IMG/VR virus record: IMGVR_UViG_3300036546_000271
DNA length: 64,000 nt
Source of the DNA: an uncultured virus (IMG/VR IMGVR_UViG_3300036546_000271)
Lineage: Duplodnaviria; Heunggongvirae; Uroviricota; Caudoviricetes
Reading direction: 5' to 3' (one strand)
Part shown: piece after piece, positions 37,069 to 40,677 of the stretch
Position numbering within the stretch: the first letter of the stretch is position 1
Layout: the number at the start of each line of letters is the position of its first letter
Made by a program: the position numbers and the translations under genes
The notes under the pieces: generated by a model
What the model was told of the DNA's origin: nothing
Seen by the model: the letters and a program-made list of their open reading frames with translations, nothing else
The model's database searches: none

Positions 37069-38451
37069 ATGAAGGTAAAAGTATTAGCTGGTGAACAAAG
37101 AATTGCTAGAGGAGAAATAGACAATGTAAATGCTATGTTGACAAGTATTGCTCCAGGAGACATACCTTTAGCGAAAAACGTTGATATTGAGCAAATGAAA
37201 CAGTTGGACGATGATCCGCTGGAAGTAGTTGTGGAAATACCAGCAGGAAAGAGTAAAAGAGGCTGGAATTATACTCCTAAAGCTCTAAAAGATATAGTTG
37301 ATTACACTATAGAGCATACTCTAAATGGCTTTCTTGGACACCAAAAAGCAGAAGACATATCTACAGAGTTTGTTCCTCCGGTAACTCACTGGATAGGAGC
37401 TGAAATGAGAGGAAATAATGCTTATTTTAGAGGCTTGATCGACGCAGATGCCAAGAGTTTAAAGCGTTGGATAAGAACCAAGAGAATTCAAGAAGTAAGT
37501 ATATTTGGCTTTCCAGATTTAAAAAAGAATCAAATAACAGGAGAAATGGATGTAGTAGGATATGAACCGCTATCTATAGACTGGACTCCTTTGCATCGTC
37601 CAGGCATGCCAACGAAGATTGTGGGCATGGAAATGAATGATATAGCAGGAGAACAATTAGATGGTACATTTGAAAAGCTAAGAAACGATTTAAGAGAAGC
37701 TGCAAAAGTATACTTCAACGCTAATGGAAATGGTAGCTATGTATGGGTAAAAAGCATTCGATATGATAACAACACAGTCATAGTAGAGCATGAACAGCAA
37801 GGACAACCGACTAAGTTATACAGCATTCCATTTACTATAGATAATCAAGAGGTAAAACTAGGCGAAAAGACAGAGGTGGTTGAGAAAAGAGTTTATGAAC
37901 CTGCATCACCTGCAGGAGAAATTAATAAAGGAGGTAATAATATGGACTTCAAAGAATTGATAAGCAATTTAAATGGCCTACTTCAAACCGGAAAGGTAAC
38001 ATACAACCAGGTACTTGGAGAAATGGCTATTACACCAGAAAAGTTAGCTGGTGAAATGGAAGAAATCAAAGAAGCCATAGAAGCTAAAGATACTCTTGAC
38101 AAGGTAAAAGAGGCTTTAGGAGTTAGTGGAGAAATGGATGTAGTTGAAGCAGCAAAAGAAAGCAAAAAAGCACTAGAGGAATCTACCAAAGACAATCTTT
38201 CTAAGACAATAGATAAGGTTGTACAAGAAAAAGTAACAGGAGAAATGGCCCAAGGTCTAGTTAAAAAAATGTTAAAAGTCGATGAAGGAGCCACAGAAGA
38301 GATTATTGCAGGCGAAGTTGACAAGATTCTTGCAGATGATCTGATGAAAAAAATTCTTTCAGACACACATGTCGACCAAGGAGCAGGGGTTGGAATAACC
38401 TCAAGCAAGACTACAAGTGGAAATCTAAGGTTTAAAAAAGCTCATATTTAA
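37069..38451 (+). CDS. Prohead protease/scaffold protein
   Basis: SKRG.NY, GFLGH, VSIFG protease-like N-half; acidic AGE(M/I)-repeat C-half. Confidence 0.7.
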   Translation: MKVKVLAGEQRIARGEIDNVNAMLTSIAPGDIPLAKNVDIEQMKQLDDDPLEVVVEIPAGKSKRGWNYTPKALKDIVDYTIEHTLNGFLGHQKAEDISTEFVPPVTHWIGAEMRGNNAYFRGLIDADAKSLKRWIRTKRIQEVSIFGFPDLKKNQITGEMDVVGYEPLSIDWTPLHRPGMPTKIVGMEMNDIAGEQLDGTFEKLRNDLREAAKVYFNANGNGSYVWVKSIRYDNNTVIVEHEQQGQPTKLYSIPFTIDNQEVKLGEKTEVVEKRVYEPASPAGEINKGGNNMDFKELISNLNGLLQTGKVTYNQVLGEMAITPEKLAGEMEEIKEAIEAKDTLDKVKEALGVSGEMDVVEAAKESKKALEESTKDNLSKTIDKVVQEKVTGEMAQGLVKKMLKVDEGATEEIIAGEVDKILADDLMKKILSDTHVDQGAGVGITSSKTTSGNLRFKKAHI

Positions 38452-38588
38452 TTTAAAGACCAGCTAGTAAAAGTCAATAGAAAAACAGAAAAAATTTTTA
38501 AAAAATAAAACTGTAAAAAAGAGTACACTTAATAAGCCAAAGTCAAACACGAACATTAGCTAATTTAAGAGTAATTTAATAATTAGAA

Positions 38589-39881
38589 TTAAGCTACTAA
38601 AGAGAGATGAGAATTGTAGGCTTTACGATGCTCATCTGGAGTTCTTAAAACAAAGGGAGTATTATCTCTAAGTACTGCAAATATGATGTTAGATATTTTG
38701 TGCATAACAGCACCAAGAGCAACCATTTTGGGCTTTGAAGTTTTCTTTTTATCATAATATTCCTTAAGTACTGGATTGTTAGGATTACCTGATTTAGAGC
38801 CTCTGACAGATACTAGAGCTACAGTAAAAAGAACTCTCCTAGCAAGTCTAGAACCACGCTTAGACATTGAAACTTTAGTTCCTTTAAATTTACCAGACTC
38901 CTTAACAGCAGGGTCAATACCAAAGTAAGCGTAAAGCTGTTTAGGCTTTTTAAAAGCTGAAAAATCACCAATCTCACACATTAGTGTAACAGCTGAGATA
39001 AAGCCAACACCTTTGATAGATTCAAGTAAATGTATTTGCTTAATAAAAAGATGTGATTCATGCTTAACAGTAAAATCTTTGATAGATTTTAAAATAGCTT
39101 CTATCTTAGAATTGAAGATTTCTATAAATTCAATATTAAGTTGTATGATTTGAAAAACCGAATTTAAGTTTTGTCCGAAGGACTTAGAAAGCGTGGCAGC
39201 ATCTATCAATGCATTGTACTTACGTTTTGCGTAATTTAAGCCCTTACGAGAGTTTAAAGCTATTAAAGATATAATTTCATCTTTAGGAGCTTTAAGTATA
39301 GCATCAGGTGTTTTATAGGTTTTAAGTATTAACAGTGATGTCTTGCCCGTAAGGCTAGAAAAAACTTTGCTATAACTAGGAAAAACTAAGCGAAGCTCCT
39401 TATGTAGTTTATTAACATAAGCAGTTTTAGAATCAACAAGATGATAATATTCCCTAGTAAGTGAACGCAAGTTAATTACAATGTCTGGTGGAATTACAGA
39501 GGTCTTTAAATCATGAGTATAGGCAGTTTTAGCAATACGCAAAGAATCATTTTTATCATTTTTTACTTTTCTAATACCTGCATTTTTGTTAGAATCAGTA
39601 ATAAGAGGATTGAGTACAAAAACCTCAAATCCTGATTCTTTCAGGTAGCAGAAGAGTGGGAAATGGTAGATTCCCGTAGATTCTAGAAAGATGCGAACTT
39701 TCATAGAATTAGACTCTTCTGCTTTTTTAATTGTAGAAACAGTCTTTTCAAGGGAATCAATACTATCATGAGTAACTTTAAAAGGTTTTACTACGGGTTT
39801 GTGATCAGGTGTAAGTATTGATATCCAGCTAAAATCAGCTCCAACATCAATACCGACACTGATAAAATCAAAATAATACAT
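38589..39881 (-). CDS. IS110-family DEDD recombinase/transposase
   Basis: VGIDVG, LESTGIYH, KNDKNDS, LLESIKGVG, YFGIDP...ESG, SKRG. Confidence 0.95.
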   Translation of the reverse strand: MYYFDFISVGIDVGADFSWISILTPDHKPVVKPFKVTHDSIDSLEKTVSTIKKAEESNSMKVRIFLESTGIYHFPLFCYLKESGFEVFVLNPLITDSNKNAGIRKVKNDKNDSLRIAKTAYTHDLKTSVIPPDIVINLRSLTREYYHLVDSKTAYVNKLHKELRLVFPSYSKVFSSLTGKTSLLILKTYKTPDAILKAPKDEIISLIALNSRKGLNYAKRKYNALIDAATLSKSFGQNLNSVFQIIQLNIEFIEIFNSKIEAILKSIKDFTVKHESHLFIKQIHLLESIKGVGFISAVTLMCEIGDFSAFKKPKQLYAYFGIDPAVKESGKFKGTKVSMSKRGSRLARRVLFTVALVSVRGSKSGNPNNPVLKEYYDKKKTSKPKMVALGAVMHKISNIIFAVLRDNTPFVLRTPDEHRKAYNSHLSLVA

Positions 39882-39899
39882 TTATGTTGCTCCTTTCAT

Positions 39900-40100
39900 C
39901 AAGTAGTGACATAAGAGATCCATTTAAACAGTGAGTACACAACCTAGCATGTGACACAGGTATACCGAAAACCGGTCCCAACCAGCCAACTCATAAATCA
40001 TCACTGAATGGAGTAATCGTCTTTATTGCGGGTATAGAAACCTGTAGGCTTCGCCCTAGGAGGTGATCATTTTTCCTCTTATTCAGTAATAGAATAACTA
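39900..40100 (-). ncRNA. Candidate IS110 bridge RNA in the non-coding end (boundaries approximate)
   Basis: Contains CCTCCTAG (target flank plus core), then TGCTAG/TGTACT (donor junction), in structured context. Confidence 0.55.
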
Positions 40101-40263
40101 AAGAATTGACTGGTGTCTATACCGGATTTAAATATTAAGTTTTAAAGGCAAGAACACGAACAATAAATTCGAATATAAAATTGTTGTTCATGTGTAAAAC
40201 TCAATAAATAAAGAAATGATGTAACTTTTTGTTACAAATATATTGTACTAGGAGGAGTAAAAA

Positions 40264-40677
40264 GTGACATATATAGGACAACCAATACCAAGTACACAGG
40301 TATCTATTGCAAGAGCAAAGGTGGGGGATGGCAAGTCAGTAAAAGTTACAGTTCCGGCCGAAACAATTATTCAGGCACAAACCTTTGTATTACTTGATGG
40401 CTTTTTTGGATTGGCAATGGATAGCGTAGAAACTGGAGCAGGTGAAACTGCAGAAGTAACTCTATCAATCGAACAAGCAGAATATGAAACTGACAATATC
40501 GTTACTACTGATGCATTCGATAAGGGAGATAAAGTCTATTGGGATGGCAGTAAGTTTACAACTGCTGCAGATGATGGTGGAACTCCCGCTACAGAGTACC
40601 GACTTGTAGGAAGGGTAACAGCTAGTAAAGATGCAAGCAATGTAATTCGTTTTATATTGCTTCCACAACAAGGATAA
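40264..40677 (+). CDS. Capsid decoration/cement protein (DUF2190-like)
   Basis: FFGLA, F.KGDKVYWD; directly before the major capsid gene. Confidence 0.7.
   Translation: MTYIGQPIPSTQVSIARAKVGDGKSVKVTVPAETIIQAQTFVLLDGFFGLAMDSVETGAGETAEVTLSIEQAEYETDNIVTTDAFDKGDKVYWDGSKFTTAADDGGTPATEYRLVGRVTASKDASNVIRFILLPQQG

Follow-up and report, generated by a model that had tools for sequence, protein, structure and literature searches.

The DNA considered here, called the window in the following, is the whole 64,000-nucleotide stretch of IMG/VR virus record IMGVR_UViG_3300036546_000271, which stems from an uncultured virus of the Caudoviricetes. Its positions 38457–40251 are an intact insertion sequence (IS) of the IS110 group, of the ordinary type and lying on the minus strand. 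The element sits between a phage open reading frame (ORF) at 37069–38451, for which zero Pfam matches were obtained, and a Phage_cement_2 decoration gene at 40264–40677, which is followed by the capsid gene. The reading developed below is that the left target guide of the element's bridge RNA mimics the anti-Shine-Dalgarno (anti-SD) sequence, and that the element and its relatives land just 5′ of the ribosome-binding sites (RBSs) of genes by a mechanism like that of IS621. We put the probability of this reading at about 0.9.

The Element, Its Ends, and the Empty Site

The element comprises 1793 bp plus a second copy of its core, the dinucleotide CT (AG on the plus strand), which stands at each junction. 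In the sense of the IS the right-end copy is at 38457–38458 and the left-end copy at 40250–40251, the latter also providing the first two bases of AGGAGGAG (40250–40257), which is the Shine-Dalgarno (SD) sequence of the decoration gene. These boundaries are defined by conserved ends and by contigs carrying the empty site. For comparison, 49 related loci were fetched from species-representative genomes. A block reading TTGAC-N-TAGCTGG(T/A)CT was found 3′ of the transposase gene in 37 of these 49 loci and in the window, that is in 38 of 50 sources, and divergence among the loci begins only past its final CT. Of the 12 loci lacking the block, most are truncated at contig ends or only distantly related. 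In the window this right end (38459–38477, minus strand) contains a −35 box, TTGACT (38472–38477), and the left donor AGCTGGT (38459–38465), and it reaches through GACCAGCTAG, itself a part of the conserved block, to 38457. On the other side, each of the 25 fully parsed left flanks has CT at its end, followed by (A/T/C)GTA(C/T)AAT; in the window this left end, the right donor, consists of AG and the −10-like hexamer TACAAT (40242–40249, minus strand).

Public metagenome contigs were aligned over 38200–40500 to seek the empty site. Two contigs of study P3, from runs X4 (28 kb) and X5 (24 kb), neither of which is a run flagged as a possible source of the window, join position 38456 to 40250 and thereby skip 1793 bases, with two ambiguous bases which fit either side. 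The phage in these contigs is free of the IS and otherwise 97-98% identical, 12 of 507 flanking bases being different. A more distant IS-free phage (L059), whose decoration protein is 83% identical, reads catatttaat-aaa-AG-gaggaataaact-ATG at the place of insertion. As the two contigs, this distant phage and the right-end block agree, AG/CT is taken as the core dinucleotide, and the sequence before insertion was ...TTTAA, core AG, then GAGGAGTAAAAA-GTG. As the phage occurs with and without the element at 97-98% identity, the insertion is recent and polymorphic. The right target flank (38440–38456, plus strand, …CATATTTAATTTAA) lies directly 3′ of the stop of the upstream ORF. The left target, read on the sense strand of the gene (40252–40266, plus strand), holds the remainder of the SD, GAGGAG, a spacer, and the GTG start codon of the decoration gene. 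Contig depth of the phage lacking the IS is high (57 in X4 and 400 in X5, both soil/subsurface metagenome runs), and the form bearing the IS was seen in shale-gas runs and in two IMG/VR contigs (L050/L058 and L051/L134).

A prediction made earlier from the letters of the window, referred to below as the original prediction, had proposed the four bases CTAG as core and GACCAG-CTAG-GAGGAG as empty site. The strings it quoted are all present (CTAGGAGG at 40056–40063, GGCTTCGCC at 40047–40055, CTAG at 38464–38467 and 40248–40251), but its anatomy had to be revised in part: the core is CT according to the right-end block, the distant phage and the X4 and X5 contigs, and GACCAG-CTAG belongs to the conserved right-end block, the joint of these contigs running from 38456 to 40250. 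Likewise the junction of the circular form, formerly given as TTA-CTAG-TACA, becomes ...GCTGGT-CT-AGTACA.... In such a circle TTGACT would stand 17 nucleotides from TACAAT (40242–40247) and form a putative junction promoter. No circle-junction contig was reported among the contigs aligned over 38200–40500. The 25 longest of 52 inverted-repeat pairs include none linking both ends of the element. As is typical for the IS110 group, terminal inverted repeats are thus absent among these pairs, and only the short core of the target is duplicated.

The Recombinase

The recombinase (transposase) gene at 38589–39881 on the minus strand encodes 430 amino acids and is preceded by the RBS GAAAGGAGC (39889–39897, minus strand). 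Its assignment to the IS110 type, already part of the original prediction, was borne out by matches to PF01548 (DEDD_Tnp_IS110, 8.8e-31, residues 9–168) and PF02371 (Transposase_20, 7.7e-23, residues 284–376), which give the protein the N-terminal RuvC-like DEDD domain and the C-terminal Tnp domain of the group. With phmmer, the best match of solved structure was the ISCro4 transposase (PDB 9t56, 4.2e-16), next to IS621 (8wt6, 1.2e-15). Residues D12, E67, D109, and D112 align with the D/E/D/D residues of ISCro4, and SMSKRGS (338–344) aligns with its MSKAGH. We take the serine of this motif to be the catalytic residue, an assumption in line with the S241 passage of PMC11208158.

The Predicted Bridge RNA

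The 368-nucleotide non-coding left end is conserved among the relatives from a promoter-like site to the transposase RBS. This internal site, TAGACA-17-TATTCT (40091–40119, minus strand), was recognised by its match to the consensus; both hexamers (40119 to 40091) are kept in the family alignment, where most relatives have TATAAT. A start there would put the 5′ end of the RNA near 40086, and the predicted bridge RNA covers 39930–40086 on the minus strand and is kept in 28 distinct relatives. According to the original prediction, a bridge RNA encoded in the left end has its target loop 5′ of its donor loop, and a conserved, covarying fold of this order was indeed found. It consists of two similar modules, each with an outer stem, an internal loop, and then GGG-hairpin-AUACC(C/U).

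The alignment comprised 29 distinct sequences, and a named structure of 28 pairs was modelled on the target loop. In this structure 86.9% of the cells were paired, as compared to 30-48% when the partners were slid by one to three columns. Changes on both sides of a pair occurred in 72 cells versus 30.5±5.7 in shuffled alignments (0 of 500), 13 pairs showing double changes, and the covariation score of the fold was 0.333 versus 0.03-0.14 for controls. The outer stem of the target loop is formed by its 5′ half CUGAAUAAGAGG (40075–40086), which pairs with the 3′ half CUCCAUUCAG (40004–40013) in helices 1 and 2, where pair 16-82 has 13 double changes. The inner stem-loop (40030–40056) is GGG...CCC around AAGCCU/AGGUUU, corresponding to helices 3 and 4, and in helix 4 changes on both sides are seen in four of four pairs. 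It is this enclosing GGG...CCC that is conserved, not the GGC-GAA-GCC hairpin which had been singled out as a structural element. In the donor loop, the inner stem-loop (39958–39979) contains helices 6 and 7, with pair 121-134 appearing as GC in 17, CG in 7, and UA in 4 sequences. All these parts lie on the minus strand. The predicted two-loop fold is thus supported by compensatory changes, and a structured left-end RNA with two internal loops, upstream of the recombinase gene, would be as found in the IS110 group. Unguided RNAalifold returned the inner stems only, together with a competing structure, built of invariant columns, in which the donor guide pairs with ACC..G.

The Target Loop and Its Match to the Insertion Site

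In the sense of the IS, the left target of the window reads ...TACTCCTC-CT. The facing segment of the target loop is the left target guide GAUCACCUCCU (40058–40068, minus strand), whose last two bases pair with the core. It matches the pre-insertion site in six contiguous bases (CCTCCT, core included) and once more at position −8; CCTCCT occurs only once in the 368-nucleotide non-coding end. The match of eight nucleotides originally counted here had been over-counted, as its last two RNA bases (AG) correspond to the first two bases of the IS itself and not to the target.

The assignment was tested by covariation in 25 distinct, independent insertions of the relatives, using flank positions −10 to −3 and shuffling the flanks among the elements. 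Guide and flank agreed in 151 of 200 cells, versus 113.2±5.6 after shuffling (maximum 135; 0 of 10,000), with the excess located at −9 to −6 and at −4. Guide-target covariation among homologs, suggested at the outset as a check, was therefore positive, and the segment around 40056–40068 is the left target guide aimed at the SD sequence, as had been supposed. Elements that are nearly identical are instructive in this respect. Four of them with guide AUUCCCCCU (L012, L015, L019, L020) are found at ..TCCCCCT flanks and four others with guide AUCACUCCU (L014, L016, L017, L021), except for L016, at ..CACTCCT flanks, so that the flank matches the element's own guide in seven of these eight. The left junction of L016 (locus ~1090-1104) has the flank AATCACTCC-CCT, which fits AUCACUCCU if an extra CC is allowed before the core, and this insertion could be slipped or off-register. 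An independent copy with the window's own guide was found in a metagenome contig (L057) at TTTCTCCTCCT, which is another CTCCTCCT site.

On the other side of the core, the right target guide is GCAAUAAAG (40021–40029), where UAAAG pairs with the core and TTA, AG facing the core and UAA the next three target bases. Together with the handshake bases AC (40019–40020) it makes up the segment 40019–40029 of the minus strand. Contiguous matches of this guide counted from the core summed to 43 versus 29.3±3.3 after shuffling (2 of 10,000), and at position +1 the guide matched in 23 of 25 sites, compared to 18.6 by cross-pairing. The first loop thus matches the target on both sides, as in other bridge systems of the group, the right side being short and weaker. 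The weak right guide of the original prediction, ACAGGT set against CCAGCT, had to be replaced, as CCAGCT is the element's own right end. The right flank of the relative L005 (after locus position 2928) starts with CGTCCCCCTACG, which holds GTCCCC(C)T, a motif like the target of that element; this element may lie next to a second target-like site or to the remnant of another copy.

The Donor Loop and the Handshake Bases

The own right end just mentioned is the left donor (AGCTGGT-CT in the sense of the IS, 38457–38465). It is read by GGCUGGU(U), the left donor guide GGCUGGUU (39980–39987, minus strand), which matches AGCTGGT in six of seven bases and is near-invariant. The 3′ strand of the donor loop (39943–39957, minus strand) carries CUAG (39944–39947), which pairs with the core CT and the initial two bases of the left end. 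In relatives whose left end starts with TG or CG, this motif is CAAG or CGAG, giving the covarying combinations CTAG/CUAG, CTTG/CAAG, and CTCG/CGAG. A second loop complementary to the element's own joined ends, characteristic of the IS110 group, is therefore present. The TGCTAG (39944–39949) and TGTACT (39934–39939) pointed out originally as matches to the circle junction both occur as reverse complements at these coordinates. The first does belong to the donor loop, though for a reason partly different from the one given, the CUAG within it pairing with the core and the start of the left end. The second did not hold: UGUACU (39934–39939), considered as right donor guide for AGTACA, shows no covariation with the end, being unchanged in relatives with AGTATA, TGTATA, and CGTATA ends, and its ACU lies within the outer stem.

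In IS621 the two bases 3′ of each core-pairing AG are handshake positions for strand exchange (PMC11208158). In the target loop of the present family these bases are AC (or UC) and complementary to the GT (or GA) that the donor has before the core; a fit of both was seen in 19 of 26 loci, the window included. In the donor loop an invariant G (G39943 in the window) follows the AG and matches the C preceding the core in 24 of 25 targets.

Shine-Dalgarno Sequences as Targets

Read on the opposite strand, the 25 flanks start with AGGAGG, AGGGGG, AGGAGTG, and similar sequences, so that the GGAGG-type flanks anticipated for other copies were seen across 25 insertion sites. In 19 of these 25 sites the core is followed at a distance of 4–23 nucleotides by the start of an ORF that has at least 50 codons or continues beyond the locus, and in 17 of the 19 this distance is 13–15 nucleotides. 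The recombinase gene always points away from the target gene. The junction in the window coincides with the 5′ edge of the SD, so that AGGAGGAG stays attached to its gene, which agrees with the earlier proposal that the insertion spares the RBS.

The guide of the window is identical to 11 nucleotides of the 3′ tail of 16S rRNA (11 of 11 bases). It is thus an anti-SD mimic that would pair with the sense strand of the SD in DNA. In the complete genome of a host of one relative (G003), GGATCACCTCCTT represents the last 13 nucleotides of the 16S gene; it occurs five times, and both of the two loci examined end a match to small subunit rRNA. At the 3′ ends of the 16S genes of this genome (L149–L153) the same 11 bases stand on the top strand and are followed by TT, which makes them a near-target by sequence. 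No insertion at a 16S 3′ end was among the sites collected.

The relatives come mostly from clostridial-type anaerobes, and their guides are tuned to the SD variants GGAGG, GGGGG, and GGAGTG, the guide differing among these variants between elements that are otherwise 95-100% identical. That a whole clade carries a left guide copying the anti-SD tail of 16S rRNA, and that this is both real and undescribed, the strong RBSs of low-GC genomes serving as orientation-locked landing pads with the RBS spared, we regard as possible, with the odds slightly below even. Among short conserved motifs, none is as widespread in low-GC bacteria and their phages as the SD, and an anti-SD mimic would have thousands of sites per genome at its disposal, all intergenic, with fixed orientation and with the RBS spared. 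Near-identical elements with different guides at matching sites would be a natural counterpart of the reprogramming of bridge RNAs in the laboratory. A bolder extension, by which the exposed CCUCCU loop of an abundant bridge RNA would bind SD sequences of mRNAs in trans and compete with ribosomes, is a long shot.

Proposed Mechanism

In the proposed mechanism an RNA of ~160–190 nucleotides would arise by transcription of the left end, which precedes the recombinase gene, and would fold into two modules of stem and internal loop. The 5′ strand of the target loop, GAUCACCUCCU, has the top-strand sequence of left target and core. Its pairing partner would therefore be the bottom strand, on which the SD of the neighbouring gene is read in the sense direction. 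The 3′ strand, ..UAAAG, would pair with the core and with one to three bases (three in the window) of A/T-rich DNA upstream of the SD. The donor loop would read the joined ends of the element, GGCUGGU facing the right-end AGCTGGT and CUAG facing the core and the left-end AG. The handshake bases, AC after the right target guide and G after the right donor guide, would complement the bases preceding the core in the respective other DNA partner. After recombination at the core, the element would border the SD on its 5′ edge, its recombinase gene being directed away from the target gene, and the SD and its distance to the GTG start would be preserved.

Several points weigh against this picture. 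No long ORF stands behind the flank in 6 of the 25 sites (L005, L014, L016, L038, L039, L047). The guide of the window is imperfect: it agrees with its target at 8 of 12 positions, −7 being one of the mismatches. In L016 guide and flank fit only with an offset of two bases. The covariation statistics leave out four relatives in which the RNA is present and the guide was unparsed (L002, L026, L030, L031; in an earlier parse L030 and L031 had guide-flank matches of nine bases) and six with a flank that was cut or not found (L009, L036, L042, L025, L027, L040). The signal of the right guide is modest, with 75 of 175 cells over all seven positions versus 61.4±4.2 shuffled; the sequence on which it depends is A/T-rich, and even at +1 there are mismatches in L005 and L036. 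As to the donor, the left guide is not cleanly paired with the core, UU or UG standing opposite CT, and since this guide hardly varies, covariation cannot test the left donor. The target-loop handshake fits with neither base in 5 of 26 loci and with one base in 2 of 26, and its agreement tracks lineages, so that few independent events stand behind the count. The outer stem of the donor loop is weak, helix 5 being paired in 72.9% and pair 106-164 unpaired in 25 of 29 sequences. An Rfam scan of 38300–40400 gave seven matches to unrelated families, with E values of 0.79-9.7 and far below the gathering scores. Finally, the transcription of the bridge RNA and its ends are predictions.

Alternative Explanations

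An unlikely alternative leaves the architecture as it is and takes the window copy to be an inactive relic, a one-off, imperfectly matched (half-site) insertion. The mismatch at −7, a right side limited to the core and three bases, and the internal deletion of the relative L035 (IS length 1443) could be understood in this way, were it not that the recombinase ORF appears sound, with full length, both domains, and aligned acidic residues, and that the RNA modules are intact and conserved. Moreover, run X3 contains pieces which are 100% identical to the element, lie beside other flanks, and have their loose ends at 38457 and 40251, and the same guide recurs in the independent copy L057 at its own SD-type site. 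That the phage is found, at 97-98% identity, both carrying the element and lacking it indicates a recent event as well. Intact ORF and RNA, the copies in X3, and the two forms of the phage together speak for a probable recent activity.

Very improbable is a second alternative, in which the C/U-rich segment is an anti-SD acting in cis on the transposase RBS and controlling translation, the SD flanks then resulting from a choice driven by the protein or from the survival of harmless insertions. CCUCCU is complementary to AGGAG of that RBS, located on the same strand ~160 nucleotides downstream, and selection could favour intergenic insertions upstream of genes; yet the segment (CACUCCU, UCCCCCU, ACCCCCU, UUCCUCCU) tracks each flank, whereas the transposase RBS is GAAAGGAG in nearly all relatives, and the minimum-energy fold of the whole left end leaves the segment unpaired with the RBS. 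Covariation specific for positions −9 to −4 would also be unexpected from selection on insertions alone.

The reading with CTAG as core, that is an empty site GACCAG-CTAG-GAGGAG with GACCAGCTAGGAGG and a right target guide that is just weak, draws on the occurrence of CTAG at both ends and of CUAG in both RNA loops but is refuted, as GACCAGCTAG lies within the right-end block kept in 38 of 50 sources, the IS-free phage contigs (38456 to 40250) and L059 both lack it, and relatives with left end CTTG or CTCG share only CT between their junctions. For annotation this means that palindromic coincidences such as CTAG can misplace the boundaries of IS110 elements, and that a poor right-target match can be the element's own donor end taken for a flank. 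The preferred reading remains that of a CT core and a left guide mimicking the anti-SD.

Neighbouring Genes, Further Copies, and Derivatives

The element splits the head-gene operon of the phage, separating the upstream ORF from the decoration and capsid genes. On the plus strand, no promoter directed outward from the left end towards the decoration gene was found. Within the IS, a terminator-like hairpin with a T-run overlaps the guide region at 40051–40066 on the plus strand, along which late transcription of the phage runs. A single site of this kind is what chance would give in the region, but it could increase any polarity exerted on the decoration and capsid genes. As an alternative extension of the SD-targeting reading, the element could uncouple the downstream gene from the operon promoter as a form of gene control.

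With the IS as query, megablast yielded zero matches in phage records and, in plasmids, only two matches (27% coverage, 78.6%), both to annotated IS110 transposases. A 19-mer of the left end was found at two loci in viral contigs, both of which are the same phage with the same insertion, and at six loci in metagenome contigs, where L057 (the full copy) and L053 (flank only) are the element's own. The other four metagenome loci, one unrelated sequence (L052, L054, L056) and another one (L055), are not copies of the element despite the 19-mer match. Five host genomes contained no extra copies beyond those already collected, giving weak matches to other IS110-type left ends. Weak matches of 72-74% in contigs C33, C2, and C34 of genome G002 (L144, L146, L147) are restricted to the donor-loop part of the RNA, which indicates that further, more distant left ends of the IS110 type exist in the same genome.

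In run X3 two short left-end stretches, corresponding to 40048–40124 and 40202–40278 of the window, have a very high contig depth (324 and 292), and a joint of 40087 to 40226, which skips 138 bases, has a depth of 823. These values point to a related element of high abundance or to a miniature derivative whose left end is shorter. The closest relative (L035:1130-2571, from a metagenome-assembled genome of Alkaliphilus, ends 85% identical) carries its deletion inside the transposase and measures 1443 bp versus ~1800; since its bridge RNA is intact and both ends are retained, it may represent a non-autonomous copy. A genome labelled as an actinomycete (Varibaculum timonense, MGYG-HGUT-02421) contains four copies (L014, L016, L017, L021) of an element of the Tissierellia type. 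The neighbouring matches in this record are all Tissierellaceae/Anaerosalibacter, and its name may misfit its content.

Comparison with Known Systems

All traits that define an IS110-group bridge system and can be tested in a sequence are present, and recombination activity of the element is predicted. Elements of the IS1111 group have subterminal inverted repeats, which are absent in the IS110 type, and their guide RNA is encoded downstream of the transposase gene. The present element has its RNA upstream of the transposase gene and no end-joining inverted repeat among the 25 longest of 52. What it has in common with the IS1111 group and its seekRNA is the transposase superfamily and the RNA-guided choice of the site (PMC11187229). 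ISCro4 (PDB 9t56) and CazIS110-1 of Caloranaerobacter azorensis (bioRxiv 10.1101/2025.10.25.684509) are, like IS621, IS110 bridge systems that have been studied experimentally; for CazIS110-1 the available passages of that preprint mention no RBS or SD target.

The closest mechanistic parallel is IS621 of E. coli. It also combines RuvC-like DEDD and Tnp domains with a left-end RNA in which the target loop precedes the donor loop (PMC11208160, PMC11208158). In its loops the 5′ strand has the top-strand sequence of the left half-site and core, and the 3′ strand complements the core and the right half-site (PMC11208160). The 5′ strands of the loops hence read the bottom strand and the 3′ strands the top strand in both elements, with a CT core in all four pairings, a short right target guide, and handshake bases directly 3′ of the core-pairing AG. 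The natural sigma-70 promoter of IS621, with its −35 box in the joined right end-left end donor (PMC11208160), has its likeness in the right-end −35 and left-end −10 boxes that would meet in the circle here. The proteins are distant from each other (phmmer 1.2e-15, the best stretch covering the C-terminal domain only; 430 versus 328 amino acids). The RNA of the window, unlike that of IS621, also has an internal promoter-like site and a left donor guide that does not pair cleanly with the core. The targets differ too, IS621 being directed to repetitive extragenic palindromic (REP) elements (PMC1525189) and the window element to the SD sequences of genes.

In the literature searched, as far as its accessible parts reach, neither a link between bridge RNA and SD nor a clade-wide guide mimicking the anti-SD was found; supplementary target tables, outside this search, could list SD-type targets. 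Association of insertion with the SD as such is already known in the IS110 family from IS900 and IS901 of Mycobacterium avium, which are aimed at translation-initiation regions. According to the relevant passage of PMC2942039, citing Doran 1997 and Inglis 2003, these elements insert between the SD and the start codon. Neither the window element nor its relatives do so, their site being the 5′ edge of the SD, 13–15 nucleotides before the start. The hosts in the present case are low-GC anaerobes and a phage, and guide and SD are linked here by covariation. By analogy, an RNA-based reading might be offered for the homing of IS900 and IS901 to translation-initiation signals as well.

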